Below are positions 16,690 through 58,215 of a DNA stretch of 64,000 nucleotides, in pieces. Under the pieces are notes generated by a model, which did no database searches, was not told the DNA's origin, and worked only from the letters and a program-made list of their open reading frames with translations. Position numbers and translations under genes: made by a program. Each line of letters begins with the position of its first letter. Position 1 is the stretch's first letter. The stretch is from Dehalococcoidia bacterium (GTDB lineage Bacteria > Chloroflexota > Dehalococcoidia > Lucifugimonadales > Australimonadaceae): positions 2,813,096 to 2,877,095 of the forward strand of contig CBDHDB010000002.1 of the NCBI GenBank assembly GCA_965261385.1. Direction: 5' to 3'.

Positions 16690-16860
16690 GCTGCGCCGGG
16701 GAAAGTGGGCTCCTCCCCCGCGCTTCGCTGCGCTTGCGCGTTCCCTCTCCCTTGCCCTCTCCCGCAGACGAGAGAGGGAACCTGAGACGGGAGGGGGAGG
16801 GGCTGCGAGGTTCCCGCCTGCGCGGGAATGACGGATGGGAGCGCGGGAATGACGGATGGG
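16690..16860 (+). repeat. Composite hairpin repeat element (core at 16807-16834)
   Basis: Contains ctctcccgcagacgagagaggg, then GAGGTTCCCGCCTGCGCGGGAATGACGG, then a partial second gcgggaatgacgg. Confidence 0.85.
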
Positions 16861-16870
16861 GATGGCGGGG

Positions 16871-18322
16871 TCATACATAGATCTGGAGGGAGGGGGGCTC
16901 CATGAAGGCGAGGGCCAGGGCGTCGGCGCGGTCGGGAGACTTGACGCCACGTTTGCGGAGGCTGGTCTTGCTCTCCAAACGGATGCGCCCGGTGCTCGAT
17001 ATGTCGTAGCGCAGGGCGAGGAGCTGGCTGGCCAGGATCGCGTCGTCCGGGATGTCGATGGCGTCCTCCCGGAGGAGGCGGGCGATCTCCCAGAAGATCT
17101 CGGCGCGCATGTCCACGAACTGGGAGGGGCGTTTCGCCTTCCCGCCAGCCTCCACGCCGATCACCGGGACGCCGAGGACGCCAAGCCTATCGACGACGCC
17201 ACCGCCGACCCCGTTCTCGTCCACGAACACGGCGGGCACGCGGAGGGCGTCCGCCCATGCCTTGACCTCGTCGGCCACCTGCATCGTGTCGAGGCCGCGC
17301 TTGAGGGGGATGAGATGTTCCACGCGAGAGCCGCGGCGGATGCAGATGACGGACTCGGCGTCGCCGAACCGGGCGACGTCGACGCCCATGCGGTAGGGGT
17401 GGTTGAGGTAGTCGCGGTCTATCTCTCCCGCTGGGAGGGGGGAGGGCTGCGAGGTTCCCGCCTGCGCGGGAATGACGGATGGGAACGCGGGGGTGACGGA
17501 TGGGGACGCGGCCATGTCGGAAGGGGAAGAGAGGGGGACGGGGTCGCCGCGCCAGCGGGCGACGGCGCGGTCGACATGGTGGCGCGTGGTGAGAGAGTCT
17601 TCGAGGGCGTCGGGGAAGCGGCCGAGCACCGAGGCGATGTACAGCGGCGAGTCTTCTCCCCAGTCGCGGCGGCGGCGCTCCACGTCCTCGGGGTTGACCA
17701 GGCCAGGGATGTGGAAACGCTTGCGGCGGAAGTTGGGCGAGTCCAGGGCGGAGATCGCTATCCGGTGGTAGAGGGCGGACTTGGAGTGGAAGGACTCGTA
17801 CAGCTCGCCCTCGTGGGAGAGCGGGTTGCCGAGGAGGAGCGCCTTCTTGGGGTTCAGGCGCTTGAGGGCTTCGAAGTAGGGCTGCTTGACGCCTTGGGCC
17901 TCCGTGACGACGACGAGCAGGTTCGGCGAGTGGAACCCTTGCAGGTTGTGCTGGGAGTTGGAGCAGAAGGCGATGGCGAACCGGTCGTCGTCGATGACGT
18001 ACTTGTCCGCGGTCAGCTTGCCGGGCAGGCGTCCGTTGGCCGCGGCGAGGGCGACGCCGAGCTCGTGCCAGAGTATCTCTTTCACCTGGCGAGCTGTCGG
18101 GCCGGTGACGACGGCTTTGGCGTGGGGCCGGGTGTGGAGCCACCAGAGGACGGCGCGGGCGGCGGCCCAGTCCTTGCCCGATGAGTTGGCGGCCACGACG
18201 GAGACGGCAGTGTAGCGGGCGAGGGCGTCGAGGATGGCTTCCTGCTTGTCGTAGGGCTTGCCGGCGTCCTGGAGGACCTCTTTGACGAATCGGGCGGGGT
18301 GGTTCTTGTATTGGGCGAGCAT
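16871..18322 (-). CDS. phage terminase large subunit-like protein (solitary), carrying an in-frame repeat insertion
   Basis: Walker A-like AANSSGKD and Walker B-like LLVVVTEA. RNaseH-like nuclease motifs MGVDVARFGD and SPDRADAL. The ATG at 18322 is preceded by GAGGAAGG. Confidence 0.75.
   Translation of the reverse strand: MLAQYKNHPARFVKEVLQDAGKPYDKQEAILDALARYTAVSVVAANSSGKDWAAARAVLWWLHTRPHAKAVVTGPTARQVKEILWHELGVALAAANGRLPGKLTADKYVIDDDRFAIAFCSNSQHNLQGFHSPNLLVVVTEAQGVKQPYFEALKRLNPKKALLLGNPLSHEGELYESFHSKSALYHRIAISALDSPNFRRKRFHIPGLVNPEDVERRRRDWGEDSPLYIASVLGRFPDALEDSLTTRHHVDRAVARWRGDPVPLSSPSDMAASPSVTPAFPSVIPAQAGTSQPSPLPAGEIDRDYLNHPYRMGVDVARFGDAESVICIRRGSRVEHLIPLKRGLDTMQVADEVKAWADALRVPAVFVDENGVGGGVVDRLGVLGVPVIGVEAGGKAKRPSQFVDMRAEIFWEIARLLREDAIDIPDDAILASQLLALRYDISSTGRIRLESKTSLRKRGVKSPDRADALALAFMEPPSLQIYV
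17423..17515 (+). repeat. Composite hairpin repeat inside the terminase-like CDS (core 17451-17478)
   Basis: Same core as the intergenic copies. It is translated on the minus strand as ...PSVIPAQAGTSQPSPLPAGE... with no stop codon. Confidence 0.85.
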
Positions 18323-18479
18323 GAGCCTTCCTCGACACATAAGGGCCGAGCGGCTCGTCCGCTCTTACTGGGGTGGGGTGTTGCGTCCCATTGTGACGGT
18401 TTCATGACATTTGGTAAATGGGCAGTTGTCACAAGGGGCCTAGGGGGCGCGTGGATTGGCAGGCAGACGCGCAGACCCT

Positions 18480-18615
18480 CTCTCTAGCTCTCATAGGTAG
18501 AACGGGATCACAACGGAAGGGTTCGATACTCATGGCCAGTAGACTTTGCGCTCTAAGGCAGGCAACAGCACCTAAGGCCCTCAGGCGGTTCCAGTCCCCG
18601 ACAGTGGGAGGCGCT
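18480..18615 (+). other. Conserved non-coding element, paralog of 58427-58567 (degenerate tRNA-like 3' part)
   Basis: About 80% identity by eye over roughly 105 nt to the 58.5-kb copy (caacggaa..ttcgatactc..cagtagactt.gcgctct..ggcaggcaacagcacctaa). No convincing ORF. Confidence 0.3.
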
Positions 18616-18741
18616 CCTCCCGTAGTTGTGTCGTTGACGGTCGGCTCAGGCATCGGCGCAGGTCTCGGCAGTCCGCATCTCGCTAGACCAGCTCCTGCAA
18701 CCCAACTAACGTCACCCTCAATATGTATTCTGGATGTAAGA

Positions 18742-20016
18742 CTACGCGAACGGCTTCTCTATGACTTCGTAATCTCCAAGGAACTTGTATGGAGGTATTC
18801 CTTCAACGATGTCTACTTCGCCGTTTGAATACTCTGCATGGGTGATGGACTTGGTCCATCCCGGCAAAGGCTTGTCGGTGTATGGGTTTGAGTAGAATTC
18901 TGCTTTTGCTCTTGTTATCGTCCAAGGATACAGGTCGGAAAACGCTATCACTCCCATGACATGTCGATTCTGAGGCCCTGAGTTGTTGGCCCAAAATCCG
19001 TCGTTCCTTCGGCTAGAGAAGGGACTTTGAAACGTTTCAGCGTTTGCTAGGTGTACGTACGAACTAGACCCTAGTCTACCCAACAGCGCTTCGTCCAGGC
19101 GGTCATCGGTACGGTCACGACGCATGGCGATTATCATGTTTTCCGCGATCTTGTGATGTCGCGCCTTTTCATAGAGCCGAGTCTTCGTCCTGCCTATGTC
19201 GTCGACGGGACTTACTCTAGACGGATATCGCCATATAAACCTTCCAGCTCTTGGACGGTTCTCTGGTAGAACCGGAATCAGCCGACTCATCAGTGTCCAG
19301 TTCCCATGATGAAATGAGCTTGTCGCGAGCAGGTTGGGATTTTGACCACAAAGCATGTAAGAGCGAAGCTAGTCGTTATAGTCCGTCTCCCTTATCAGTT
19401 CTTCGAAGTGGCATTTCAGTTGCTGTTTGGTAGGGAGTGATTCCAATTTCCCTTGGGTTTCGAGGTGCAAGACAAAGTCAGGCAAAGAAATCTCATTCAG
19501 GGTGTCCCAAACCGACAGTTCTAGTTGGTCCCTTTCCAAGGCGGTGCCACTTTCCAAATCGATGTTGGTGGCTTCAACTACGTAAATGAATTGAGTTCCA
19601 TCTTGGACGTTCACCTGAACTCTAAAATCTAGTAGGTGGCTCCTAAGAGAAGGTTGGGCCTCCACCGGATCGCCTGTACCATTCAAGAATTCATGCAAAA
19701 ACAGCTCAAAGAATGCAGCATAAAAGGCCTTGTCATTTATTCTTGATCCAGGTCCTTTGTGGCGCATGGGGCCTACAAGCATGCGCTGGTGCTCGGACGG
19801 GAATCGGTCGACCCAACGCTGAAGCATAGACCGCACTCGTTCATATTCAGGGAGCGAAGAACGATCGAGAAAAGCGTAGACTGACTCAACGCTGCGCGAT
19901 GGTTCGATGTAGTCCCTGGGTTTGTCGTCGAATAGTCGGACTATGAGATTTCTCCAAATGACAAAGGCGCTTGTACTCCGCTCCCGCCAGCACTCCCACG
20001 ATAGTTCTACAAGCCG
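18742..20016 (-). pseudogene. Decayed low-GC gene of unknown function (in-frame TAG at 19369-19371, no start codon for the upstream 60 codons)
   Basis: ORFs 19369..19836 and 18742..19356 are in the same frame, separated by a single TAG. The frame stays open upstream to 20016 without an ATG, GTG or TTG. GC content is clearly lower than in the flanks. Confidence 0.45.
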
Positions 20017-20099
20017 TTATATTACATTGATAAGCATGGGAACAGAGTCAGCGGGCATGAGGGTCTCAGTCGTGACAGACCTTTGCATGGTGGGGACTA

Positions 20100-20815
20100 C
20101 GACCGGTTGCGGGCGAACGCTTTTCCTCCCCCGAGCGTCGCTGCGCTGGCGCGTCCCCTCTCGCAGACGGGCGGGGTTTCCTGGATTCCCGTTTTCGCGG
20201 GAACGACGGGTGGGGGGAGGGGTGCTGACGGCGGGCGAACGTTTCTCCCTCACCCGCGCTGCGCGCGACCTCTCCCGCTGGGAGAGGTGAGGGGCTGCGA
20301 GGTTCCCGCCTGCGCGGGAATGACGGGAGGGCGCCGGGATGACGGAGGGGCGCGGGAGGGGAGGCTGCGAGGTTCCCGCCTTCGCGGGAATGACGGGTTG
20401 GGTTTGGGGTGACGGGGGTAGTTGCGGGCGGGGCGTTCTCCTTCCCCGCGCTTCGTTGCGCTGGCGCGTCCCCTCCCGCAGACGGGCGGGGGGTTCCTGG
20501 GTTCCCGCTTTCGCGGGAATCTCTCACGTTGGCCTATCGGCCAACACCACAACCGACGAAAATAGGGGCTGGAGGACGGAGCGAGGGATCGCGGTGCTGT
20601 CGCCCCGCTACGAGGTTCCCGCCTGCGCGGGAATGACGGAAGGGGGCGTGGGTGGCGGGGGTTAGTTGCGGGCGAACGCTTCTCCTCCCCCGCGTTTCGC
20701 TGCGCTGGCGCCTCCCCTCCCGCAGACGGGCGGGGAGGGCTGCGAGGTTCCCGCCTGCGCGGGAATGACGGAAAGGGCGCGGGAATGACGGAAAGGGCGC
20801 GGGAAATGACGGGAG
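20100..20815 (+). repeat. Dense cluster of six composite hairpin-repeat units
   Basis: Cores at 20183 (variant), 20299, 20369, 20499 (truncated), 20612 and 20744, plus extra gcgggaatgacgg partial copies. The modules between cores are themselves repeated elsewhere in the window. Confidence 0.9.
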
Positions 20816-20828
20816 GGGGGCGGGGGCC

Positions 20829-22886
20829 ATGGGGGTTGGCGGGGTGTACAATCTCGGCGTGGCAAGGCTCTACCGCTACTCCCGGTGGGACGGTTCTCAG
20901 GAGCCGTTCGAAGCCGATGCCGGAGCGCTCCTCGATGCTATGGCCGAGGACGTCATCGACCACGGCGATGTTCGCCGCGCTCTCCGCGACCTCCTCCGGC
21001 GCGGCGCCGACGGCGAGGACACGCGCCTTCCCGGTCTTCAGGACCTCCTCGACCGCCTGGGCTCGCGCCGCAGGGAGACGCTCGACCGGTACGACATGGA
21101 CTCCGTGATGCGCGACCTGAAGGAGCGCCTCGACGACGTTCTCCAGACCGAGCGGGCGGGCACGGACCGCCGGCTCGGCGAGATCGAGCAGGACCTCGCC
21201 CGCATGAGTGATGAGGAGGCGGAGCAGGCCGGCAAGCTGCGCGACCTCTTCCGCCAGCGGGCCGACCGCAACCGCGAACGTCTCGATCAGCTCCCCCCGA
21301 GCACGGCGGGCGCCCTGCGCGAGCTCCAGGACTTCGACTTCATCGACCCGGAGGCGCAGCGGAAGTTCCAAGAGCTCATGGACGAGCTCCGCAAGGAGAT
21401 GCTCGGCTCCGTCGCCTCCGAGATGCGGCAGCAGATAGAGAACATGGACCCCGAGCAGATGGCCCAGATGCGCGAGATGCTGCGGGACCTGAACCAGATG
21501 ATGCGGGACAAGCTCGCCGGTCTAGAGCCCGACTTCGAGGGCTTCATGGACAAGTGGGGCCCCATGTTCGGAGACGATCCGCCGCGCAGCTTCGACGAGC
21601 TGATGGAGATGCTCGCGCGCCAGATGGGGCAGATGCAGTCGCTCCTCGACAGCATGTCCCCGGAGCAGCGTCGCGAGCTGTTCGAGGCGATGAACTCCGC
21701 CATGGACGGCGACACCGCCGGGGAGCTGGCCGAGCTGGCCGCGAACCTGGGCCAGCTGATCCCGTTCGACGACTTCTCGGAGCAGTACCCGTTCATGGGC
21801 GAGGAGAACCTCACCCTCGAACAGGCGATGAACGTCATGGGCGAGATGCAGTCGATGGACGACCTGGAAGCGCAGATCCAGCAGGCGATGCGCCGGGGCG
21901 ACCTCGACGAGCTGGACGCCGACATGCTCGAAACGATCCTCGGTGAGGAGGCCCGCCAAGACCTGGACCGGCTCGCGGAGATGGCGAAGCGGCTGGAAGA
22001 GGCGGGCTACCTGCGGCGGAACGGCGACCGCCTGGAGCTGACCCCGGCAGGCGTGCGGAAGATCGGTCAGAAGGCGCTGCGCGACCTCTTCGGCGACCTC
22101 CGCAAGGGGCGCGGGGGCGACCACGAGCTAACGCTGCGGGGCTCCGGCGGCGAGCACACGGACGAGACCAAGCCCTACGAGTTCGGCGATCCGCTGGAGA
22201 TTCACCTGCACCGCACCATCATGAACGCCATCGAGCGCCAAGGCGTCGGGACGCCCGTCAAGATCGGCATCGAGGACTTCGAGGTGAAACGCACCGAGCA
22301 CATGGTGCAAGCCGCCACGGTCCTGCTCATCGACCAGAGCCGGTCGATGGGGCTGTTCGGCTCCTGGGGCGCGGCCAAGCGGGTGGCGCTGGCGTTGGAG
22401 GCGCTCATACGCGGGAAGTTCCCCCGCGACCGCTTCTGGATGCTCGGCTTCTCGGACTACGCGGTCCCCATCAGCGCCGACGACCTCCCGACGCTCTCGT
22501 GGAACGCGTGGGTGTCCGGCACGAACATGCAGCACGCCTTCGCGATGTCACGCCGTCTGCTCGCCCCCTACAAGGACTGCTCCAAGCAGATCCTGATGAT
22601 CACGGACGGCGAGCCCACGGCCCACCTAGAAGGGACGCGGGCCTACTTCAACTATCCGCCGACGTACCGCACCATCCAGGAGACGCTGCGGGAGGTCCGC
22701 CGCTGCACCACCGAGGGCATCACCATCAACACGTTCATGCTGGAGACGAGCTACTACCTCCTCGACTTCATCGACCACGTGACGCGGATAAACAACGGCC
22801 GGGCGCTGTATACGTCGCCGTCCAACCTGGGGCAGTACGTGCTGGTGGACTATCTGAACAATCGGAAGCGTCGGGTGGTTAGTTAG
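20829..22886 (+). CDS. VWA domain-containing protein with a long acidic coiled-coil region (MoxR/CoxE-associated type)
   Basis: N-terminus YRYSRWDGSQ. The C-terminal VWA fold has the MIDAS-like motif DQSRSM. The start is uncertain (ATG 20829, GTG 20844 or GTG 20859) and lies inside the edge of the repeat cluster. Confidence 0.8.
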   Translation: MGVGGVYNLGVARLYRYSRWDGSQEPFEADAGALLDAMAEDVIDHGDVRRALRDLLRRGADGEDTRLPGLQDLLDRLGSRRRETLDRYDMDSVMRDLKERLDDVLQTERAGTDRRLGEIEQDLARMSDEEAEQAGKLRDLFRQRADRNRERLDQLPPSTAGALRELQDFDFIDPEAQRKFQELMDELRKEMLGSVASEMRQQIENMDPEQMAQMREMLRDLNQMMRDKLAGLEPDFEGFMDKWGPMFGDDPPRSFDELMEMLARQMGQMQSLLDSMSPEQRRELFEAMNSAMDGDTAGELAELAANLGQLIPFDDFSEQYPFMGEENLTLEQAMNVMGEMQSMDDLEAQIQQAMRRGDLDELDADMLETILGEEARQDLDRLAEMAKRLEEAGYLRRNGDRLELTPAGVRKIGQKALRDLFGDLRKGRGGDHELTLRGSGGEHTDETKPYEFGDPLEIHLHRTIMNAIERQGVGTPVKIGIEDFEVKRTEHMVQAATVLLIDQSRSMGLFGSWGAAKRVALALEALIRGKFPRDRFWMLGFSDYAVPISADDLPTLSWNAWVSGTNMQHAFAMSRRLLAPYKDCSKQILMITDGEPTAHLEGTRAYFNYPPTYRTIQETLREVRRCTTEGITINTFMLETSYYLLDFIDHVTRINNGRALYTSPSNLGQYVLVDYLNNRKRRVVS

Positions 22887-22898
22887 GGGTTGGCGAAT

Positions 22899-23048
22899 AT
22901 GGACTCGCCCAAGGACAAACCCGAAATCGACACTGCCGACCGGCGCCCCATAGGGTTGGGCAAGGGCTTGGCGGAGCTCCGCGATTCCTTCTTCGAGCCG
23001 TTGCCTGATGAGTTGCTTGATTTGTTCGAGGGGAAGGGCGAGTCTTAG
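22899..23048 (+). CDS. short antitoxin-like ORF (49 aa)
   Basis: The C-terminal motif GLGKGLAELRDSFFEPLPDELLDLFEG resembles the tail of PIN-associated antitoxins. No intact toxin follows it. Confidence 0.3.
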   Translation: MDSPKDKPEIDTADRRPIGLGKGLAELRDSFFEPLPDELLDLFEGKGES

Positions 23049-23647: not shown

Positions 23648-23717
23648 CGTTCGCCGGTTTGACGCTCCCTGCGTATCCCGATACTGCGAGCTATGTCAGA
23701 GGAGGGGGGCAGTTGAG

Positions 23718-23939
23718 ATGAACCTTCCAGTAAGCGGCAAGGGGCATGACGATTCCTCGACGGCGCAGGGCGATATTGTTCGGGAATGGGGGTCGCCCAC
23801 GGGTCTCGATGAGTGCCAAGAGCTCATAGATGACTTGGCCGCAGCCCAACAGGCGCTCGCAGAGTATGAAGCCGCTGGCGTAGAGGGCGCTATTCCCTAT
23901 AGCGAGTACAAGGCAAAGCGCCTTGGAACGAAGTCCTGA
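23718..23939 (+). CDS. putative antitoxin of the RelE/ParE module
   Basis: 73-aa ORF overlapping the downstream toxin by 17 nt, which is typical TA organisation. Confidence 0.6.
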   Translation: MNLPVSGKGHDDSSTAQGDIVREWGSPTGLDECQELIDDLAAAQQALAEYEAAGVEGAIPYSEYKAKRLGTKS

Positions 23940-24195
23940 GTACGAGCTGCACATAGCTCCTCGCGCTCAACGTGAGCTCGAACGCCTGCCGCTCACGGAC
24001 TATGAACGGGTGGACGAGCGCATTGGGCCGCTCGCGCAAAACCCACGTCCTCATGGTGCCGCCAAGCTCTGGGACAAGGCCTACCGGATACGCATTGGCC
24101 CGTGGAGAGTCATCTACATCGTCGATGACGCCAAACGAGTTGTAGTGATAACCGGCGTCCTACGGAGGGAGAAGGACACCTATCGTTTGACGTAG
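23923..24195 (+). CDS. type II toxin, RelE/ParE family
   Basis: 90 aa with the pattern ...AQRELERLP...YRIRIGPWRVIYIVDDAKRVVVITGV.RR, typical of RelE/StbE. Confidence 0.85.
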   Translation: MERSPEYELHIAPRAQRELERLPLTDYERVDERIGPLAQNPRPHGAAKLWDKAYRIRIGPWRVIYIVDDAKRVVVITGVLRREKDTYRLT

Positions 24196-24235
24196 CTCTC
24201 TCGATACGAGACATCGCCTAACTGCCCGACGTCGG

Positions 24236-24310
24236 GGATCCGGGGGCGAGGTTCCCGCCTGCGCGGGAATGACGGGAGAGAGCGAGAATGACGGGGCGAG
24301 CGGGGATAGC
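24236..24310 (+). repeat. Composite hairpin repeat (core 24248-24275)
   Basis: Exact core GAGGTTCCCGCCTGCGCGGGAATGACGG followed by a partial gagaatgacgg. Confidence 0.85.
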
Positions 24311-24399
24311 GGGAAGGTTGCGGGCGTGACGGGCGGGGCTTGCGGGGGACGGCTTGGGCTCCTTATACTCAATCGCACAACAGAAGACCGCGACCGACC

Positions 24400-24507
24400 T
24401 TTAAATCCAGTCCTGTGAGGCTGGCAAGGCAGGGACCGGGGCCGTGGATGTTCGCGTCCAGGGCCTGATTACGAGACCTCTTTGCCAGCGGCTGAGAGGT
24501 TTTTTTC
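24400..24507 (+). promoter_or_regulatory. PyrR-binding leader/attenuator of the pyr operon
   Basis: aaAUCCAGuccugugAGGCUgg resembles the PyrR binding loop. It is followed by the hairpin acctct...agaggt and a T7 run that abuts the pyrR TTG start. The GAGAGG RBS lies within the 3' arm of the hairpin. Confidence 0.6.
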
Positions 24508-25059
24508 TTGCCCGACGAGCGCCAGATACTGACAAGCGACGACATGCGGCGCGTGATTAGCCGCATCGCTCACGAGATCGTCGAGCGCAATCACGGCGCC
24601 GCCGACCTGCTGCTCGTCGGGCTCCAGCGTCGCGGAGTGCCGCTGGCGAACCGCATCGCCGCCGCCATCGCCACCTTCGAGGGCGCCGACGTTCCGGTCG
24701 GATCGCTCGACATCAATCTCTACCGGGACGACCTCACGAGCCGTCCCCAGCCCTTGGTGAGGCCGACGGAGTTCCCCGTCGGCGTGGACGGCAAGATCGT
24801 CGTCCTGGTGGATGACGTCTTCTACACGGGCCGCACCGTGCGGGCCGCCCTCAACGCGCTGATGGACCTGGGCAGGCCGCGTGCGGTCCAGCTGGCCGTC
24901 ATGGTCGATCGGGGCCACCACGAACTGCCCATCCGGGCCGACTACGTGGGCAAGAACGTGCCCACGAGCCTGAACGAAGAAATACAGGTACGTGTCGCCG
25001 AGTTCGACGCCACTGAAGAGGTGGCGCTGGTCAGGCACGACCGGCGGGTGCTGTCATGA
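24508..25059 (+). CDS. pyrR: bifunctional pyr operon regulator/uracil phosphoribosyltransferase PyrR
   Basis: 183 aa with the PRPP-binding motif [13 protein letters not shown]. It is the first gene of the pyr operon. Confidence 0.9.
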
Positions 25060-25114
25060 CGACGAACGCTCCGCCCCCCTCCTCAATCCTCCCCCGGACG
25101 GAGAGGGAGGACAG

Positions 25115-26251
25115 ATGAACCCTCCTCTGCATGAGGGACACGTGCAAGGGGAAGGGGGACAGACGAACCAGCGGCGCAAGCACATCCTCGACCTCGACGA
25201 CTTTTCGCGCGAGGAGATTGTGGGCGTGCTCGACCTCGCCGAGGCGATGCGCGAGCTGCTGGGGCGCAGCATCAAGAAGGCGCCGTCGCTGCGGGGGAAG
25301 GTCGTCATCACGGTGTTCCTCGAACCGAGCACGCGGACGCGGGTCTCGTTCGAGCAGGCGGGGAAGATGCTCAGCGCGGACGTCATCAACGTTAGCGGGT
25401 CGGGCAGCAGCGCGGAGAAGGGCGAGTCGCTCCTCAACACGGCGCTCACGCTCCAGGCGATGCGCGCGGACCTCATCGTCATTCGCAGCCCGCACTCGGG
25501 CGCGCCCTACTTCCTCGCCAGGAATCTCGAACGCGCGGGCGTCGTGAATGCAGGCGACGGCCGCCACGCCCACCCGACGCAGGCGCTCCTCGACCTAATG
25601 ACGATGCGGCATCACATGGGCGACCTCGACGGCAAGAAGGTCGTACTCGTGGGCGACTCGCTGCACAGCCGCGTCGCGCGGTCGGACATCTTCGGACTGA
25701 CCGCAATGGGCGCTTCGGTCGTGCTCTCCGGGCCTCCAACGATGATTCCGCTCGACCTGCTCAAGGGCGGCCCCCTCCCGGCCTCCCCCGCAGACGGGGG
25801 AGGAGATCAGAAGGGGCCGCGAGGTTCCCGCCTTCGCGGGAATGACGGCGGCGGCGGGAATGACGGAGGAACCCGCGGGAATGACGGGGGCGGCAGGAAT
25901 GACGGAGGAGCCCCTGGCCTCACGGTCGAGCCTGACCTCGACGCCGCGATAGAGGACGCCGACGCGGTCATCGCCTTGCGCGTCCAGAAGGAGCGTCAAG
26001 AGGCAGGGATGCTGCCGAGCATGCGCGAATACACGCGCCGCTGGATGATTTCGGAGGCCAGGCTCCGCCGGGCCAAGCCGGGGGCGCTGCTCATGCACCC
26101 GGGCCCGATGAACGAGGGCGTCGAGATTGCGTCCTCCTTGGCGCACGGGCCCGGCGCGCAAATCGAGGAGCAGGTCACGAACGGCGTGGCGATTCGGATG
26201 GCGCTGCTTTACCAACTACTCACCGGCGCGCAAGAAGAGGCTTCCGAGTGA
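25115..26251 (+). CDS. pyrB: aspartate carbamoyltransferase catalytic subunit with a roughly 52-codon repeat-derived insertion
   Basis: Motifs STRTR, HPTQ and LRVQKERQ. The ATG at 25115 is preceded by GAGGGAGG. The longer ORF from 24992 overlaps pyrR and is unlikely to be real. Confidence 0.9.
   Translation: MNPPLHEGHVQGEGGQTNQRRKHILDLDDFSREEIVGVLDLAEAMRELLGRSIKKAPSLRGKVVITVFLEPSTRTRVSFEQAGKMLSADVINVSGSGSSAEKGESLLNTALTLQAMRADLIVIRSPHSGAPYFLARNLERAGVVNAGDGRHAHPTQALLDLMTMRHHMGDLDGKKVVLVGDSLHSRVARSDIFGLTAMGASVVLSGPPTMIPLDLLKGGPLPASPADGGGDQKGPRGSRLRGNDGGGGNDGGTRGNDGGGRNDGGAPGLTVEPDLDAAIEDADAVIALRVQKERQEAGMLPSMREYTRRWMISEARLRRAKPGALLMHPGPMNEGVEIASSLAHGPGAQIEEQVTNGVAIRMALLYQLLTGAQEEASE
25765..25920 (+). 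repeat. Composite hairpin repeat inserted in frame in pyrB (core 25821-25848 plus three gggaatgacgg partial copies)
   Basis: cctcccccgcagacgggggagg plus GAGGTTCCCGCCTTCGCGGGAATGACGG, translated as ...PADGGGDQKGPRGSRLRGNDGGGGNDGGTRGNDGGGRNDGG... Confidence 0.85.
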
Positions 26252-28649: not shown

Positions 28650-28712
28650 TGCTTGAAAGCGATGTGCTATAGTGATGTGCGTTCACTGCACATTTCTGAC
28701 GAGGTGAATAAG

Positions 28713-28976
28713 ATGCGTACGACGCTCGATATAGACGAGAGGCTCCTCGGGGATGTGATCCGCGCGGTGGGGGTGAAGGGCAAGAGCAAGGCGGTGGAGG
28801 AAGCCTTGCGTATGTACCTCCGGTCGTGGGCCGCCAAGAAGCTCATCGAGGCTGTCGGCACGATTGATCTCACCGAGAACATGGAGGAGTTCAGGCGCGC
28901 CGACTCCCTTAGAGAAGAGAAACTCGACCGGATGAGAAGGGGAGCCACAGAGCAGAACCCTGTTCGTGCTAGGTGA
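28713..28976 (+). CDS. vapB: type II antitoxin VapB-like
   Basis: MRTTLDIDERLL start preceded by GAGGTGA. Overlaps the PIN gene by 4 nt. Confidence 0.7.
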   Translation: MRTTLDIDERLLGDVIRAVGVKGKSKAVEEALRMYLRSWAAKKLIEAVGTIDLTENMEEFRRADSLREEKLDRMRRGATEQNPVRAR

Positions 28977-29374
28977 AGGACCCCATGATCCTCCCCGACA
29001 CCTCTGTCTGGATAGAATATTTTCGGCGACGCGAGTCTCCAACGCAGGTGGAACTCCGGCATCTCCTCGAACGGGATCAGGTAATTGTTGCCGGAGTCGT
29101 CCTCACCGAACTCCTGCGCGGAGCCCGCTCCGAGGGGGAGTTTGAATTTTTGACGCGAACCCTAGGCCTGCTTCCTCAGGCAGAGGTCTCCGAGGATACA
29201 TGGGTGCGATGCGGCGAGGTCTCTTACAGTCTAATGCGGCAGGGAACCACCATCGGGCTGGTCGACGCGCTGATTGCCGCTATGGCCCTCGACGGCGGGC
29301 ATGACGTCTACGCGCTCGATTCCGATTTTCATCTCATACCCGGCCTCCGCCTCCATCAGCCCACGAATTCATGA
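28973..29374 (+). CDS. vapC: PIN-domain toxin VapC
   Basis: ILPDTSVWIEYF (first acidic residue), ..TELLRG.. and a C-terminal D..F pattern. Its stop overlaps the carB ATG (ATGA). Confidence 0.85.
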   Translation: MKDPMILPDTSVWIEYFRRRESPTQVELRHLLERDQVIVAGVVLTELLRGARSEGEFEFLTRTLGLLPQAEVSEDTWVRCGEVSYSLMRQGTTIGLVDALIAAMALDGGHDVYALDSDFHLIPGLRLHQPTNS

Positions 29375-42341: not shown

Positions 42342-42377
42342 CCTAGCCGCCGACGGACCCACTGGCGTTCGCCTCCG

Positions 42378-44122: not shown

Positions 44123-44126
44123 GGGC

Positions 44127-44452: not shown

Positions 44453-45214
44453 ATGGACATTCGAGAAGAAGAGCTCGATCTACCCGTGGACGAGGGGACG
44501 ATGGCCACGTTCGTGTACCGGCCCGACGACGACGAGCCCCGGCCGGCCATCATCATGGTCCACGACGCGCTCGGCCTCAGCGTCGACGCCCGCGCCCAAG
44601 CGCGATGGATCGCCGAGCAGGGCTACGTGGTCGCCGCTCCCGATACGTTCCACCGGGCGGGGCGCCTACTGACCACAACCGCTCTCGGCGGCGGCGAAGA
44701 AGCCACCCGCCGCATCCGCCAGGGTATGACCAACGACGACCACCGCTCCGATATGGCCCGCCGCGCCGCGTTCCTCAGAGAGCAACCAGCCGTCAACGGG
44801 CGGGTGGGGCTGACCGGCTTCTGCCTGGGCGGACGCATCTCCTACCTGGGCGCGACGATGGGCGGCGTGTTCGACGCCGTCGTCGCCTTCTATCCGACGC
44901 GCCTCCGCGAGCCGGACCCCGCCGTCCCCGGCTCACCGAGCCCCATCGATGACGCGGGCAACATCACGCGGCCGCTGCTCATGTTCTTTCCGGAGCTCGA
45001 CGGCTTCAACCCGGCAGAGGGAGTGGACGTCATCCGCGCCGCCTCCGAGAACTCTCCCGGCGAGGTCGAGGCAGTCTGGGTCGAGGGAGCAGACCACGGG
45101 TTCGCCCAGCCTGCGGGCAGCAAGCATCATCCGCAGCGCAGCGCCGAGGCGTGGGAGCGGGCGCTCTCATTCTTCGCCGAGCATCTCAGCGCAACGCCCT
45201 CGCGGGCGCAGTAG
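44453..45214 (+). CDS. dienelactone hydrolase family protein
   Basis: The start is preceded by GGAGGGAG. Has the nucleophile region GFCLGG and a C-terminal GADHGF. Confidence 0.85.
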   Translation: MDIREEELDLPVDEGTMATFVYRPDDDEPRPAIIMVHDALGLSVDARAQARWIAEQGYVVAAPDTFHRAGRLLTTTALGGGEEATRRIRQGMTNDDHRSDMARRAAFLREQPAVNGRVGLTGFCLGGRISYLGATMGGVFDAVVAFYPTRLREPDPAVPGSPSPIDDAGNITRPLLMFFPELDGFNPAEGVDVIRAASENSPGEVEAVWVEGADHGFAQPAGSKHHPQRSAEAWERALSFFAEHLSATPSRAQ

Positions 45215-45215
45215 T

Positions 45216-45262
45216 CAGCGAGATTCCCGCCTGCGCGGGAATGACGGAGTGCCCGTGCCCTC
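45216..45262 (+). repeat. Hairpin repeat (core 45220-45247) between the two DLH paralogs
   Basis: GAGATTCCCGCCTGCGCGGGAATGACGG. Confidence 0.85.
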
Positions 45263-45293
45263 GCGGGCGAGGCAATAGCAATAAGGAGCGCAC

Positions 45294-46028: not shown

Positions 46029-46066
46029 CCCCTTCCTCAGTCTCCCCCTCGAAGACGGGGGAGGAG

Positions 46067-48864: not shown

Positions 48865-48874
48865 GGCCCTGCGC

Positions 48875-49876: not shown

Positions 49877-49924
49877 CTAGTCCCGTGCTCCCGTCGTTGG
49901 CAGGGTTGCGAAATTATAGCAGTC

Positions 49925-50395
49925 CCCTGCCCCTCCCCTCCGTCATTGCCTCGAAAATAGACGCCCACGCCCCCTCCGTCATTCCCGCGCAGGCGGGAAC
50001 CTCGTAGCGGGGCGACAGCACCGCGATCCCTCCCCGCGCCCCAACCGTCTTCCCACGCCCCAACCGTCATTCCCGCGAAAGCGGGAATCCAGGTATCGGC
50101 GTCCGCTCGCCTATTTTCCTTGGTTGTGGTGTTGGACGAGGCCAACATAGGGGATTGCCTCGAAAATAGACGCCCACGCTCCCCTCCCGTCATTCCCGCG
50201 CAGGCGGGAACCTCGCAGCGGCGCGACAGCGGCGCGGTCCATCCCCCTCTTCCCGTCTGCTCCGGTTCTCCCCACCGTCTGCGGGGGAGAGCTAGAGAGG
50301 GGGCCGCCCCACTCGCCACTTTCGTCCGTTGTGGTGTGGAGCGTTGGCCCGTCTGCGGGGGAGAGCTAGAGAGGGGGCCGCCCCGCCAACCAGGT
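49925..50395 (-). repeat. Second cluster of composite hairpin repeats, inverted orientation
   Basis: Cores at 49976-50003, 50064-50090 and 50187-50214 (ccgtcattcccgcgcaggcgggaacctc), plus cccgtctgcggggg hairpins at about 50255 and 50350. Confidence 0.9.
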
Positions 50396-50399
50396 TCCC

Positions 50400-50765
50400 G
50401 GGGAGTTCAACTACCAAATTCTGAACAGTTGCCTGCGACGCCTGCCCATTGCCCAACCCCATTGATATTTCTACAATGAAGTGTCGGATTATCGTCATGT
50501 CTAGGACCACGAATCCCCCAACCACTTACGCCGGACTGTTCCCTGCCGCCCCCGTCTGCGGGAGAGACTACGAGGGGGCTGGAGCGCACGAAATACAAAT
50601 TTTCGGTCAGATAGTAGTTCCGCGACCCAGGAAGCAGGCCACGGCCATGAAAACAACCTCTGTCAACCCCCAAATGTCATCGATTTTCGGATACTTTTTT
50701 ACTCGTAATCTCCCCGAAAAATCGAGTACTTCCCACTCGTAACCTCCCCGATAGATTCGGGGACT
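50400..50765 (-). other. AT-richer conserved non-coding element (copy B), inverted paralog of 38446-38740
   Basis: See copy A. Contains two direct tcggggagRttacgagt units 34 nt apart, read on the minus strand. Confidence 0.35.
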
Positions 50766-50854
50766 TTCCTCATCCCGCCTGCGCGGGACTGAGGTGCGGC
50801 GCAGGCAGCCTATATAATCGTTGTTCGGTAAGAGACGGCGCGGCAGGCGAGGTT

Positions 50855-51814: not shown

Positions 51815-51830
51815 GGAGGGGGGCCGCTTG

Positions 51831-53075: not shown

Positions 53076-53169
53076 TCCCGGCTCCGCCAGGGGCGTTCCC
53101 TTCGGTCGTCCTCCATCGACGTGAGAGGACGCATTCACCCTGGCGCAGGCCGTGGCAGCGAGGAGAACC

Positions 53170-53886: not shown

Positions 53887-54080
53887 GGGATTAGCGTAGG
53901 GGATTGGCCCTCCAGGGAGCGGCGCAGGGAGCCGCCTGCTGTAGGGCAAGCGCTTTCGAGTGCATTCGAGCGCGCGTCCCGCGCTGGGCAGTTGCTGGGC
54001 GTTCTCCCGATGCCTCTCCCGCGCTTCTCCAGATCGAGCGCCTCCGCCCCGCCGCGGCCTGCTTTAAGGGCGACGACGGG

Positions 54081-54593
54081 ATGCGCGAAATCTCGCCGCA
54101 AACCCGCGGGAACCTGCTTGACGGTGTGACCCGGCTACGCCAATCTAGCGTCCCAACCGAAGCGCCACCCAGGAGAACAACCTTGGCGACGGTCGAAGAG
54201 ATACTGACCAAGAGCAGGGTGATTGCGGTGGTGGGGCTTTCGGACAGGCCGGACCGGCCATCTCACGGGGTGGCGCGGTATCTGCAAGCGCAGGGGTACC
54301 GGGTGATCCCGGTGAACCCCGCGCTGACCGGGCCGGTGCTCGGCGAAGCGCCGTACCGCAGACTGGAGGACGTAGAAGAGCACGTCGACCTCGTCGACAT
54401 ATTCAGGAGACCGGTAGATGTGCCGCCCGTCGTAGAAGCGGCCATCGAAATCGGCGCCTCCGTAGTGTGGATGCAGCTGGGGATTATCCACGAGGAGGCC
54501 GCCGCAAAGGCAAGGGCAGCAGGGCTCGACGTCGTGATGGACAAGTGCACGGCAATCGAGCACCGGACCTTGCTCGGAGACCGAACAATCTAA
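54081..54593 (+). CDS. CoA-binding domain protein
   Basis: RVIAVVGLSDRPDRPSH...GYRVIPVNP. The start is uncertain; a TTG at 54183 is also possible. Confidence 0.75.
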   Translation: MREISPQTRGNLLDGVTRLRQSSVPTEAPPRRTTLATVEEILTKSRVIAVVGLSDRPDRPSHGVARYLQAQGYRVIPVNPALTGPVLGEAPYRRLEDVEEHVDLVDIFRRPVDVPPVVEAAIEIGASVVWMQLGIIHEEAAAKARAAGLDVVMDKCTAIEHRTLLGDRTI

Positions 54594-54646
54594 AACAGAC
54601 CGCCGTCACGAAAGGGGGTAAGTGCGCTGTCGAGCGGAGTGTGGAG

Positions 54647-55498
54647 ATGGTTTACCGTGAAGCGGACCACGTCAGGTTGCTGAAGGAGCGGACGCGCACG
54701 TCGATCAGCCTCGCCATGGAAGGCAGGTGGGAAGAGGCGGCGCAGCTCAACCGGGAGATTCTCGAAGCGTGCCCCGATAACGTCCAAGCCTTGAACCGGC
54801 TCGGCAAGGCGCTGATCGAGCTCGGCCACATGGAGGATGCGCTCCAAACGTTCGCGCTGGCGCTGGAGATGGAGCCGGACAACCCCATCGCGGCCAAGCA
54901 CGTTGCCCGGCTCAACTGGGCCGCTGAGAAGGGGCCCTCCGCCAACGCCCACTCGAATGGACTTCCGGGCCTCAGCGTCAAGATGTTCACCGGCGACAGC
55001 GGGAAGAGCGCGGAGGTCGTCCTGCTGGCCTCCGATCACGCGGGCCATCCGTCGCCCGGCACGCCGGTGTCGCTGGAGCGCAACGGCTCGACCCTTGCCG
55101 TGTTCGACGCCGCGGGCGTCTGCCTCGGACTGACCCCGCCCAAACTGGCGCACCGGCTCATCGCCCTCATGGAGGGCGGCAACCGATACGACGGTGCAGT
55201 GTCCGGCCTGACGAACGGCGCGGTGCGTGTGGTGCTTCGCGAGGCGCACCAAGACCCGAGCCAGCGGTCGAAGGTCTCCTTCCCGCCGACCTCGGCTCCT
55301 GAGCCGGAGCCTGCCGAAGAGGCGCCCGCGCCGGAGTGGGCGGAGAATGAACTACCTGTCGCCGAGGCTCCTCCGGTCTTCAGCGAGGAGGAGTCGCAGG
55401 CGCTGGAGCTGGCGGGTGTCGGGGCGGCGCTCGATGGCGGACTGTTCGACGACATGCTGCTGCCCGAGCTGATCGAGGAGGACGAGCCGCCGCTATAG
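54647..55498 (+). CDS. TPR repeat protein with an acidic C-terminus
   Basis: TPR-like helices (ALNRLGKALIELGHMEDALQTFALALEMEPDN). Confidence 0.6.
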   Translation: MVYREADHVRLLKERTRTSISLAMEGRWEEAAQLNREILEACPDNVQALNRLGKALIELGHMEDALQTFALALEMEPDNPIAAKHVARLNWAAEKGPSANAHSNGLPGLSVKMFTGDSGKSAEVVLLASDHAGHPSPGTPVSLERNGSTLAVFDAAGVCLGLTPPKLAHRLIALMEGGNRYDGAVSGLTNGAVRVVLREAHQDPSQRSKVSFPPTSAPEPEPAEEAPAPEWAENELPVAEAPPVFSEEESQALELAGVGAALDGGLFDDMLLPELIEEDEPPL

Positions 55499-55558
55499 GC
55501 CCACTACAACCCCCCGGTGCGGGCGCTATACTCCTCACCACCCTAGGAGCAGCCCCGC

Positions 55559-55903
55559 ATGACCTCTTCTCCCGACCCGGGCCGGTCCCTCGCCGCCCAC
55601 GTGCAGCGTCTCACCGAGATGATGCAAGCCATGGACGCTGAGCACAAAGCCTACGAGGAATGGCTCCTACGCGTAGACGCCGACCTCAATACGCGCATAG
55701 CGGCTACCGAGGACGAGCTAGCCCAAACGAACCGGCGGATAGAGACCATACGCGCCGAGTCGGCCGACCAGCGCCGAGCGCACCAAGCGTGGGTGCAGAC
55801 CGTCGAAGCCCAGATCGCCAGCCACCGCGAGACCATGAGTGGCCTCCTCGACGGCCTCGTCCAAGCCCAAGCCGACATCTCCCGCCTCGACGCCGCCTCC
55901 TAA
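55559..55903 (+). CDS. hypothetical coiled-coil protein
   Basis: 114-aa ORF with heptad-like composition. No family was recognised. Confidence 0.4.
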   Translation: MTSSPDPGRSLAAHVQRLTEMMQAMDAEHKAYEEWLLRVDADLNTRIAATEDELAQTNRRIETIRAESADQRRAHQAWVQTVEAQIASHRETMSGLLDGLVQAQADISRLDAAS

Positions 55904-55904
55904 C

Positions 55905-55950
55905 CCCACCCCCGTCACTCCCGCGCAGGCGGGAACCTCGCCCCCTCTCT
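55905..55950 (-). repeat. Hairpin repeat (core 55912-55939)
   Basis: ccgtcactcccgcgcaggcgggaacctc. Confidence 0.8.
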
Positions 55951-55965
55951 GCCATCCCATGCAGC

Positions 55966-58056
55966 CTATTCCTCCAGCGACTCCGCTAGGAGCTCCAGCA
56001 GGTCTTTGGCGGCCTTGTGGTCGGCGGCACCTTTGGCGGTGATGCCCTCTTCCATCATCTGGAGGCAGAATGGGCAGGAGACGCCCACGACATCGGCTTC
56101 GGTCTCCAGGAAGTGGTCGGTGCGGATGTGGTTGACGCGGACGCCCTGCTCTTCCATCCACATGCGCCCGCCGCCGGCGCCGCAGCAGAAACCTCGCTCG
56201 CGGCACTTGCCCTCGCCCATCTCAACGAGCTCCAAGCCGGGGATGGCGCGGGCAATCTCTCGCGGCGGGTCGTAGATGTCGTTGTGCCGGCCCAGGTAAC
56301 AAGAGTCATGGTAGGCGACGGAGATGGGGACAGCCTTCTTGGGCCGGATGCGGTTCTCGCGGAGAAGCTGGGCGACGAGCTCGGTGTAGTGGACCACCTC
56401 AAAGTCGCCGCCTAGCTGCGGGTACTCGTTCTTGATCGTGTTGAAGCAGTGGGGGCACAGGGTGACGACCTTCCGCACCTCGTAGCCCTTCATCGTCTCG
56501 ATGTTCTGCTCGGCCATCATCTGAAAGAGGTACTCGTTGCCGAGGCGGCGGGCCGGGTCGCCCGTGCAGGTCTCCTCGCTTCCGAGCACGCGGTACTTCA
56601 CCCCGGCCAGCTTGAGCACGGACGCCATAGCCCGCGCCGTCTGCTGGCCGCGCCCATCGAGCGCCGAGGTGCAGCCGACCCAGAGCAGCAGCTCGTTGTC
56701 GGGGTCGTCGGCCATGGCGACGGCTTCGGTCCCCTCCATCCAGTCGGTCCGCGTGGCCTGGGTGCCGCGCCAGGGATGGCCGCGCTGCTCCATCGAGTTG
56801 AGTGCGCCCATCGCGGTCTCGGGAACGTCGGCCTCCTCCATCGTGAGGTAGCGGCGCATGTCGACGATGGAGTCGATGTGCTCGACGAATGCGGGGCAGG
56901 CCTCCATGCAGGCGCGGCAGGTCGTGCAGGACCAGAGGACCTCGGGGCTGATGAAGCCGTGGACGAGGTCGCTTTCCGGCTCCGGAGGCGGAGCGTCGGC
57001 GCCCTCGGCGAGGAGGACCGGCGCGCGGGAGACCATGTAGGCCTTCGCATCCTGCACAAGCTTCCTCGGCGAGAGAGGCTTGCCGCTGCGCCATGCGGGG
57101 CACTGGTCCTGACAGCGTCCGCAGTTCGTGCAGGAGTCGTAGTCGAGCAGCTGTTTGGAGGTGAGCTGGGTGAGCTCGCGCGCGCCGAAGACCTCCAGCG
57201 TATCGAGGTCCCCCATGGACCGGAGGGCACCCTTGGGGCGGGTGACCGAGGAGCGCATCACAAGATTGATGGGGCTCACGAAGATGTGCATGAGGGGACC
57301 GAACCGCCACGCGGCGTAGACGAACGTGGCCGACATGAGCGCGGCGTGGGCCCACCAGAGGACGAAGTGCGATACCTCCATGCCGTAGACGGTTGCGCCC
57401 ACGGCCCGGATGCCTTGGGCAATGACGTATGAAAAGGGCGACCAGTAAGCAGACGACACGCTGTAGAGGTCGCTCGCCGGCTCGAGCTCGGTGGCGGCCA
57501 TGCGCAGAGACTGCAACACGAAGCCGGAAAGGGCCATGCTCAGGAGCAGGACGAGGAGCACGCCGTTCTCCAGCATCGTGTTCAGACGGGGCGGTCTAAC
57601 GACGTAGCGGCGGTAGGCGGCGAGCGCGACGCCCGAGATGAGCATCAGGCCGCCGATGTCCCAGACGAGCTCCAGCTGTACGCCGATGCGGCGGCTCGCC
57701 AGATGCCAGCCAAACCACTTCTCGGCGTTGAATTCCACGGCGTCGAGGCTCGTCGCGATGAATAGGATGGCCATCCCCCAGAAGATGAGGAAGTGCATCG
57801 CACCGGGGTAGCGCTCATGTTTCGCAAACCTTCGGTGGCCGGCGGCGTCGGTGAGCAGCGTACTGAAAGCGGCCCTGAGCCTCGCGCCCCAAGGGCCAAC
57901 GTCCGGGTTGGGCTTCCCAAGCCGCCAGTACCGCGAACGCCGCCAGAGCGCCCAGGCGACCGCCGCAAGCGAGATGACGCCGACGAGATAGACGACCGCT
58001 CCCAACGGGTAGCCGATATTCCAGAAGTCGAGGCGTCCGTTCAGCTCAGGGGGCAA
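55966..58056 (-). CDS. membrane-anchored (Fe-S)-binding oxidoreductase, NarI/DsrM-like N-terminus fused to an HdrD/DsrK-like CCG-domain C-terminus
   Basis: 696 aa with 5-6 N-terminal transmembrane helices. Has two 4Fe-4S ferredoxin motifs (CTNCGRCQDQCP, CTTCRACMEACP) and CCG motifs (CPHCFNT, GFCCGAGGG). Confidence 0.8.
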   Translation of the reverse strand: MPPELNGRLDFWNIGYPLGAVVYLVGVISLAAVAWALWRRSRYWRLGKPNPDVGPWGARLRAAFSTLLTDAAGHRRFAKHERYPGAMHFLIFWGMAILFIATSLDAVEFNAEKWFGWHLASRRIGVQLELVWDIGGLMLISGVALAAYRRYVVRPPRLNTMLENGVLLVLLLSMALSGFVLQSLRMAATELEPASDLYSVSSAYWSPFSYVIAQGIRAVGATVYGMEVSHFVLWWAHAALMSATFVYAAWRFGPLMHIFVSPINLVMRSSVTRPKGALRSMGDLDTLEVFGARELTQLTSKQLLDYDSCTNCGRCQDQCPAWRSGKPLSPRKLVQDAKAYMVSRAPVLLAEGADAPPPEPESDLVHGFISPEVLWSCTTCRACMEACPAFVEHIDSIVDMRRYLTMEEADVPETAMGALNSMEQRGHPWRGTQATRTDWMEGTEAVAMADDPDNELLLWVGCTSALDGRGQQTARAMASVLKLAGVKYRVLGSEETCTGDPARRLGNEYLFQMMAEQNIETMKGYEVRKVVTLCPHCFNTIKNEYPQLGGDFEVVHYTELVAQLLRENRIRPKKAVPISVAYHDSCYLGRHNDIYDPPREIARAIPGLELVEMGEGKCRERGFCCGAGGGRMWMEEQGVRVNHIRTDHFLETEADVVGVSCPFCLQMMEEGITAKGAADHKAAKDLLELLAESLEE

Positions 58057-58094
58057 GTCCGGCCTCCATGTGAGGTGGCCGCGAGTTTAGCAGG

Positions 58095-58215
58095 TCTCCC
58101 CTACCCTTCCGTCGTTCCCGCGCCCTCCCGCCCGACTCTCCGTCATTCCAGCGCAGGCGGGCACCTCGCAGCGACGCGACAGCAGCGCGGTCCCTCCTCC
58201 CCCGGTCTGCGACGC
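58095..58215 (-). repeat. Degenerate composite hairpin repeat (core 58140-58167)
   Basis: ccgtcattccagcgcaggcgggcacctc, plus a partial ccgtcgttcccgcgcc and the ggaccgcgctgctgtcgcg module. Confidence 0.75.

Follow-up and report, generated by a model that had tools for sequence, protein, structure and literature searches.

Dispersed hairpin repeats in a Dehalococcoidia genome very probably belong to the CGTC-tagged REP family known as dRS3 in Neisseria

The DNA analysed here, called the window throughout, is a stretch of 64,000 nucleotides from contig CBDHDB010000002.1 of a Dehalococcoidia bacterium, an uncultured member of the phylum Chloroflexota. Between positions 16,690 and 58,215 it carries a family of short hairpin repeats. 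We conclude that these are very probably CGTC-tagged repetitive extragenic palindromic (REP) sequences of the CGTC-1 type, the same element as dRS3 of Neisseria, and that they probably behave as small non-autonomous mobile hairpins. The identity of the family is far more secure than the mechanism by which it moves. Although the repeat family itself is known, several aspects are new: its occurrence in this host phylum, its organisation in head-to-tail mosaics with half-copies, the gains and losses at strain level, and the variable in-frame arrays in pyrB and in a terminase-like gene.

The core of the repeat, GAGGTTCCCGCCTGCGCGGGAATGACGG, has 13 matches with at most three mismatches in the window (G+C about 66%), and none in any of 100 dinucleotide-preserving shuffles. 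A looser hairpin pattern, TTCCCGC-N4-GCGGGAA with at most two mismatches, recovers 17 hairpins, and these are the roughly 17 copies listed in a first-pass annotation of the window, all present at exactly the positions given there. Typical plus-strand cores start at 16807, 17451, 20183, 20299, 20369, 20499, 20612, 20744, 24248, 25821 and 45220, all at 16.8-45.2 kb. Minus-strand cores start at 49976, 50064, 50187, 55912 and 58140, all at 49.9-58.2 kb, and a variant on the plus strand starts at 50771. Read on the opposite strand, the core is C-CGTC-ATTCCCGC-GCAG-GCGGGAAC-CTC. The GAG start, the GC-rich stem and the 4-nt loop proposed in the first-pass annotation are retained, though the stem is 7-8 bp long, not 5-6 bp. 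The predicted folding energy of the hairpin is -7.9 to -8.4 kcal/mol as DNA and -12.6 to -13.5 kcal/mol as RNA. The stem in the window is ATTCCCGC/GCGGGAA(C/T), with positions 2-8 paired in nearly every copy; at position 1 most copies have a G-T/A-C pair, whereas those at 45220, 50064 and 20183 have a true A-T pair. The loops are CTGC, CTTC, TTTC or TTTT. A GACGG tag (CCGTC on the other strand) accompanies 15 of the 17 hairpins, in some with one mismatch; the hairpin at 20499 has no tag, and that at 50771 has TGAGG instead. The tail is CTC(G) in most copies, and CCA or CCCA only at 20183, 20499 and 50064. The units stand singly or head to tail in mosaic clusters, and no inverted pair of cores is present in the window. 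The copies are spread over 41 kb, and the earlier description of a dispersed, modular family resembling REPs or miniature inverted-repeat transposable elements (MITEs) is supported.

The CGTC-1 repeats defined by Di Nocera, De Gregorio & Rocco in 2013 have an unpaired CGTC tag, an 8-bp stem that opens with A-T pairs, a 4-nt loop and a 3-nt tail (PMC3733652). These authors equated the CGTC-1 repeats of Neisseria with dRS3, the repeat of the Neisseria intergenic mosaic elements (NIMEs), and assigned the Rickettsia palindromic element (RPE) RPE-6 to CGTC-1 (PMC3733652). The window repeats share with CGTC-1 the unpaired CGTC tag, the stem ATTCCCGC/GCGGGAAT, the 4-nt loop (GCAG, GAAG, GAAA), dispersal in many copies, occasional in-frame copies within genes, and the absence of an adjacent transposase. 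Head-to-head dimers predominate in CGTC-1 but are missing here, where the units are single, head-to-tail or in mosaic clusters; in Neisseria and Wolbachia, CGTC-1 repeats are likewise clustered instead of dimeric (PMC3733652). The hairpin and tag of Neisseria dRS3, TTCCCGCCTGCGCGGGAATGACG, are identical in the window. In a sensitive search of plasmids, the proteobacterial form of the core matched N. gonorrhoeae records over 29 of 30 bases at 40 or more places per record, and it also matched Azospirillum, Cupriavidus, Sphingobium and Coxiella replicons; a megablast search of plasmids and phages with the Chloroflexota-type core gave no match. The gonococcal locus that we retrieved contains an array with the identical hairpin and a GACG tag. 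In NIMEs, dRS3 hairpins (ATTCCC-N8-GGGAAT) surround families of 50-150 bp modules, and the arrays differ among strains. The window likewise alternates the hairpin with module families, here of 40-110 nt, in arrays whose length varies between strains and which have variable genes nearby; repeated module families, a conserved composite and strain-level array differences were all found. Neisseria arrays, however, hold hairpins in both orientations and inverted pairs, whereas each array in the window has a single orientation. Their modules have a lower GC content than the hairpin, whereas the window modules are GC-rich and are themselves small palindromes, and tandem GCGGGAATGACGG half-copies are prominent in the window. 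Bertels & Rainey gave ATTCCCGCGCAGGCGGGAATC as the master sequence of the Neisseria REPIN (a REP doublet forming a hairpin) and tied it to a Group 2 RAYT, or REP-associated tyrosine transposase (bioRxiv 10.1101/2021.07.10.451892). This is the same hairpin as ours, and both systems are populations of short palindromic repeats, though the defining doublet form and a flanking RAYT gene were not found in the window. The first-pass annotation had allowed that the core might prove to match an already described REP or MITE family with a known RAYT partner, and CGTC-1/dRS3, with its Group 2 RAYT in Neisseria, is largely that.

The same hairpin is widely distributed. Species-representative genomes contain the exact 26-mer GGTTCCCGCCTGCGCGGGAATGACGG in at least 113 stretches, mainly in Pseudomonadota, Chloroflexota, Planctomycetota and Nitrospirota. 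Among the matches listed, the hosts include Sphingomonadales, Hyphomicrobiaceae, Massilia, Ramlibacter, Kingella, Pseudomonas and Glaciecola, together with about 12 assemblies of Chloroflexota metagenome-assembled genomes (MAGs; mostly labelled Dehalococcoidia), several Planctomycetota and one Nitrospirales MAG. A few short contigs labelled Bacteroidota or Streptomycetaceae also carry it and may be mis-binned. Since the 2013 survey listed CGTC repeats in Proteobacteria, Chlorobi, Bacteroidetes, Spirochaetes and Thermotogae only (PMC3733652), Chloroflexota, the phylum of our host, Planctomycetota and Nitrospirota are extensions of the family. The named homologues of the window proteins are labelled Chloroflexi, Chloroflexota, Dehalococcoidia or SAR202 MAGs. 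Inverted pairs are usual in Pseudomonadota and Planctomycetota, and head-to-tail arrays with half-copies in the Chloroflexota MAGs. The chromosome of a relative, OZ252088.1, has the 26-mer in seven stretches from 0.6 to 2.3 Mb: the core points the same way in the six at 0.6-2.2 Mb and the other way in the one at 2.3 Mb. A purely local duplication, which the first-pass annotation had raised as an alternative, is thus ruled out by the dispersal of copies in the window, along OZ252088.1 and across phyla.

The stem is conserved as a structure. Positions 3 and 18 form a T-A pair in 57 of 84 distinct variants and a C-G pair in 17; mismatches are few, so that compensatory changes keep the stem; the outermost pair is G-T, A-T or G-C. 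GACG is the dominant tag across loci. With 1 kb around every repeat masked, the orientation of the core tracks the local GC skew in 58 of 89 loci (p = 0.006). This bias fits, and hints at, a process acting on one strand.

The cores are embedded in a larger vocabulary of reusable pieces. The first-pass annotation had noted extra half-copies after the cores and reusable modules before them, and both are real. Half-copies of GCGGGAATGACGG turned up in the hairpin-pattern search 3' of cores at 16843, 17487, 20333, 20779, 24282, 24320, 25854, 25875 and 25893, and on the minus strand one at 58109 likewise follows the core at 58140. They are spaced by 19, 19, 20, 21 and 38 nt in non-coding DNA. In coding DNA every spacing is a multiple of three (in pyrB 18, 21 and 18 nt; in the terminase-like gene 21 nt), which fits selection for the reading frame. 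The upstream modules are repeat families of their own, D5, D6, D8 and D10, and module B (ctctcccgctgggagagg) may be one too. Four window copies and two loci of a relative share a conserved composite of the REP and a module of about 32 nt, and in four of these six copies CCGTC or CCCGTC follows 3-12 nt after the unit. A palindrome with a CAGA loop, CCCGCAGACGGG, occurs 11 times in the window, where 1.35 would be expected: at 16761, 20160, 20475, 20719, 25787 and 39530 on the plus strand and at 50274, 50348, 50551, 51793 and 8016 on the minus strand. Its orientation is that of the cores in 10 of the 11 copies and it often lies directly beside them, and these palindromes may be a preferred landing site for cores.

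These pieces are combined differently from site to site. The largest mosaic array, which is NIME-like, occupies 20085..20828 on the plus strand in the intergenic region ahead of the gene at 20829-22886; its six cores (20183, 20299, 20369, 20499, 20612 and 20744) are interleaved with three copies of module A, with modules B and C, and with half-copies. A smaller plus-strand array at 16690..16870, between a luciferase-like gene and the terminase-like gene, has module A, the CAGA-loop palindrome at 16761, a core at 16807-16834 and a half-copy at 16843-16855. On the minus strand, a mosaic array in a divergent intergenic region (49930..50400) contains the cores at 49976, 50064 and 50187 with CAGA-loop palindromes at 50274 and 50348, and a second divergent intergenic unit (58100..58215) consists of a half-copy at 58109-58121, a diverged core at 58140-58167 and the module of about 32 nt.

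Comparison of closely related strains indicates that the repeat family looks recently active. Strain L117, whose DLH2 protein is 98% identical to that of the window, is syntenic with the window over about 40-58 kb. It lacks three window units and has one core that is absent from the window. The isolated 61-nt plus-strand unit at 45209..45269 (core 45220-45247 with short flanks) is missing in L117, which has the empty site. In the window, the target palindrome GCCCTCGCGGGCG is present as a 13-nt direct repeat (45196-45208 and 45257-45269), the second copy of which closes the unit; the unit also supplies the stop codon of the upstream gene. The 66-nt unit at 50192-50257 begins directly 3' of CCCGTC and ends in CCCGTC, and it interrupts a CCCGTCTGCGGG palindrome, which L117 has in uninterrupted form. 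These two insertions are clean, each of them in a small GC-rich palindrome and between short direct repeats. Another copy of the composite at 50192-50257, located at about 49963-50056, is likewise absent from L117; of the cores at 49976, 50064 and 50187, L117 has only the middle one. Conversely, L117 has a core and a half-copy after DLH2, where the window has a 38-nt spacer (46029-46066); because the flanks differ too and no clean insertion can be delimited, this site was left out of the junction rules. Other copies are shared between strains. The single minus-strand core 55912-55939 between convergent genes (55905..55945) and the degenerate plus-strand hairpin ATCCCGCCTGCGCGGGAC without a proper tag (50771..50798) are kept in L117, and the core at 24248 is conserved in three strains, in which the number of half-copies differs. 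L117 also has features of its own. About 690 nt of low-GC DNA, including a 106-aa open reading frame (ORF), are inserted at 9247-9950 (corresponding to about 45180 of the window) in the 3' end of its first dienelactone-hydrolase gene, and fragments of a DDE transposase lie further upstream.

Two arrays lie in frame within coding sequences, which the first-pass annotation had not noted, and in pyrB the repeat is predicted to form part of the protein. The gene (24992-26251) encodes 378 aa from the MNPPLHEG start, as in the database protein P0001, to which the product is identical. A plus-strand array at about 25765..25915, made up of the CAGA-loop palindrome at 25787, a core at 25821-25848 and three half-copies, is inserted in frame and splits the Pfam Asp/Orn-binding domain. 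When the product is compared with the solved Aquifex enzyme, 55 query residues span six residues of the chain, so that about 49 residues have been added at a short surface loop. Homologues whose alignment identity is 92% or more carry inserts that differ widely in length (proteins of 351-414 aa), and those with about 85% identity have no insert; the co-occurring strain L115 has exactly one extra in-frame 108-nt unit of core plus module. A frame-shifted insert in the homologue P0008 comes from a long-read contig of 6x coverage, may be a sequencing error, and was not used as evidence. Here, then, a conserved gene keeps its frame through an insert that close homologues do not have. This is the pattern of the Rickettsia elements RPE-4/RPE-6 and RPE-1, palindromic repeats found in frame at tolerated sites of protein genes. 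The window copies differ in being multi-unit arrays whose length varies between near-identical strains, and in their host, a free-living Chloroflexota lineage and not an obligate intracellular bacterium. The surroundings of pyrB are those of a pyrimidine operon: a PyrR-binding leader at 24394-24509 (Rfam RF00515, 54.9 bits, just over the gathering score) is followed by pyrR-pyrB-pyrC-carA-carB. Exact-sequence look-ups of the window pyrC ORF and of the protein P0284 returned no record. Upstream of the leader there is another plus-strand unit (24230..24340), consisting of the core 24248-24275 and degenerate half-copies.

The second intragenic insert lies in a solitary homologue of the terminase large subunit (16871..18340, minus strand; PHROG 2, E = 2e-35), a gene with arrays on both sides and one inside. 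The internal array (17415..17510, plus strand) comprises a small palindrome module, the core 17451-17478 and a degenerate half-copy at 17487-17499. It is in frame in the interdomain linker; the core encodes VIPAQAGT, and the insert encodes ..SVIPAQAGTSQPSPLPAGE... A tblastn search found a 60%-identical paralogue in a relative with the identical core at the same place and different flanking modules. Chloroflexota genomes have several copies of this gene family each (loci including L074, L123 and L124), and the interdomain linker ranges from 33 to 141 residues. Among the matches listed, 38 of 120 terminase-like homologues have REP-encoded peptides in the linker, in at least four frame and orientation classes. 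As controls, such peptides were found in 8 of 120 pyrB homologues, all of one clade, and in none of 120 DLH2 homologues. Between the terminase-like gene and the large REP array lies a low-GC cassette (about 55%, 18341-20082), whose ORFs have no match in PADLOC or PHROGs. At locus L124, the same terminase-like gene (91-93% nucleotide identity) stands in a different genomic context, again with REPs on both sides. There, the position of the cassette (6140-8000) is taken by a Kiwa defence system (KwaA, E = 1e-45; KwaB, E = 5e-100) and not by the unknown ORFs of the window. At one end the nucleotide homology between the two loci stops at the REP, and at the other it stops some 150 nt upstream of the gene. 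The cassette site looks like an exchange hotspot bounded by REPs.

How would such a unit move? We infer that small hairpins are the insertion sites of the units, frequently with CGTC adjacent; a similar targeting of small palindromes has been noted for other REP families (PMC3733652). The strain polymorphisms further suggest that units start right after CGTC, end in CGTC and insert into the loops of small palindromes. In the mechanism that we propose, new units would land in or beside small GC-rich palindromes, typically CCCGTCTGCGGG. Such insertions would nest and so build mosaic arrays of cores and reusable modules like the NIMEs of Neisseria. As whole units and GCGGGAATGACGG half-copies are gained or lost, the arrays would become longer or shorter, and copies in tolerant protein loops would survive only where the reading frame is kept. 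Insertion may use single-stranded DNA and be targeted to hairpins, and the likeliest enzyme would be a Y1 (HUH) transposase of the RAYT type, whose gene would lie in another part of the genome; such an enzyme has been proposed for Neisseria. This RAYT model is the best available guess, and we hold it tentatively, at well short of an even chance.

Several observations weigh against our reading. The tail is mostly CTC here, whereas it is CCA in CGTC-1 and CCAG or CCAT in other taxa, and the first stem pair is usually a mismatched G-T/A-C, leaving seven paired bases where CGTC-1 has a stem of 8 bp from an A-T pair. The window has no gene for a RAYT, another transposase or an IS110 element. A tblastn search with a RayT query gave a sole match, inside an old-yellow-enzyme gene, which is spurious. 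A scan for HUH-Y motifs over the window and 113 loci (828 kb of core-bearing DNA) found a single Y1-like gene, at locus L043, and we rejected it as a partner because the long palindrome on its flanks, of the GGGGTCAGG type, is unrelated to this REP. Inverted pairs, the REPIN form, are considered the mobile form of such repeats, and they are absent from the window. Only two insertion events are clean, and the other strain could have lost the units at these sites through slippage between short repeats; the direct repeats at these two junctions also differ in length (13 and 6 nt). Transposition of the IS200/IS605 type is not known to leave a target duplication, so the presence of direct repeats at both clean junctions is itself unfavourable. 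The correlation with GC skew is modest, and gene orientation could explain it. Finally, the 2013 survey found no transposase associated with CGTC repeats (PMC3733652), and the literature is in conflict here, given the Group 2 RAYT assigned to the Neisseria REPIN.

The alternatives differ in what they ask of the hairpin. The first-pass annotation had noted that the core is built like a type I-E CRISPR (clustered regularly interspaced short palindromic repeats) repeat, from which one could suppose a degenerate or orphan array whose repeat derives from, or is processed like, that type. The likeness in architecture stands. The core is similar in length to the I-E repeat of E. coli K-12, which we checked in the genome (CGGTTTATCCCCGCTGGCGCGGGGAACTC), also starts with GAG, agrees with it in 20 of 30 aligned columns (a score reached by 1 of 2,000 shuffles), and shares its 7-bp GC-rich stem and 4-nt loop. 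As a functional CRISPR, however, every defining feature fails. The E. coli repeats have a strict period of 61 nt and unique spacers, whereas the window cores are spaced by 70, 129, 114, 132, 88 and 123 nt and the segments between them are repeated modules. There is no leader. Pfam scans of about 65 window ORFs found no cas gene and no transposase, bearing out what the first-pass annotation had said of the window. Rfam, a search that it had recommended, returned no matching family and no CRISPR-DR match for the core even at E <= 10. Copies also lie within genes, singly and on both strands, and the same 26-mer forms inverted pairs across many phyla. On spacing, repeated "spacers", cas absence and Rfam absence, we reject the CRISPR reading as hardly credible. 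It is also improbable that the hairpins are kept mainly for a role in RNA or DNA topology, such as stabilising transcript ends, attenuating read-through or binding gyrase. The compensatory stem changes, the frequent G-T pairs on the GACGG-tagged strand, the stable predicted RNA hairpin (-12.6 to -13.5 kcal/mol), the position of the sites 45220 and 55912 directly after stop codons, and the argument in the literature that many REPs are transcribed would all suit such a role. The orientation is inconsistent, though, with the GACGG form on the sense strand in pyrB and the CGTC form in the terminase-like gene; several arrays are located in divergent promoter regions, the hairpin is not followed by a T-run, no Rfam family matches, and the variable presence of units between near-identical strains argues against an essential local role.

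A rather unlikely possibility is that the arrays mark hotspots of cassette exchange and are not transposing units themselves. The same has been put forward for dRS3 of Neisseria, a repeat into which filamentous prophages integrate, and there variable genes are flanked by NIME arrays. The arrays do bracket the block formed by the low-GC cargo cassette and the terminase-like gene. The different cassette at L124, where the terminase-like gene is again bracketed by REPs and homology stops at one of them, resembles the Neisseria proposal that arrays promote exchange of neighbouring genes, and it could be a rival or a complementary role. A related genome also has an IS110-family transposase. Against exchange, the window has no recombinase, integrase or IS110 gene, the isolated unit at 45209-45269 and the in-frame intragenic arrays are left unexplained, one pair of loci was compared, and the density of REPs in these genomes is high enough for the flanking to be coincidence. 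The bracketing by REP arrays, the 38 of 120 homologues with REP-bearing linkers, and the travelling with exchangeable defence cassettes also raise the thought that the solitary terminase-like ATPase-nuclease, rather than a RAYT, is the enzyme acting on the hairpins. We consider this very unlikely; if true, it would be a new kind of partnership between a repeat and a nuclease.

The assignment to CGTC-1/dRS3 has several consequences. A false lead is removed, in that the repeats are not a CRISPR-like system. The CGTC/dRS3 family is extended to Chloroflexota, and also to Planctomycetota and Nitrospirota, with the same 26 bases, which sharpens the puzzle of what causes the uniformity of the hairpin across phyla and of what moves it. 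Near-identical strains with gains and losses of single units are material for working out the rules of insertion, and this lineage could make the question of a CGTC-REP transposase testable. In addition, aspartate carbamoyltransferase, an essential enzyme, has here a repeat-encoded loop whose length differs among relatives, a natural example of mobile hairpins reshaping proteins.

Some neighbouring features of the window deserve mention. Within the pyr operon, a VapB/VapC (PIN) toxin-antitoxin pair lies at 28653-29374 between carA and carB, and strain L115 has a gene for 74 aa at this place. Two small ORFs at 23700-24215, upstream of the pyrR leader, end in ..WRVIYIVDDAKRVVVITGVLRREKDTYRLT; from their appearance they may be of the RelE/ParE toxin type. 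Towards the end of the window there is a direct repeat of 300 nt (61247-61546 and 63632-63931), with 92% identity between copies that are 2.4 kb apart, and its first copy covers the start of a LicD-family gene.

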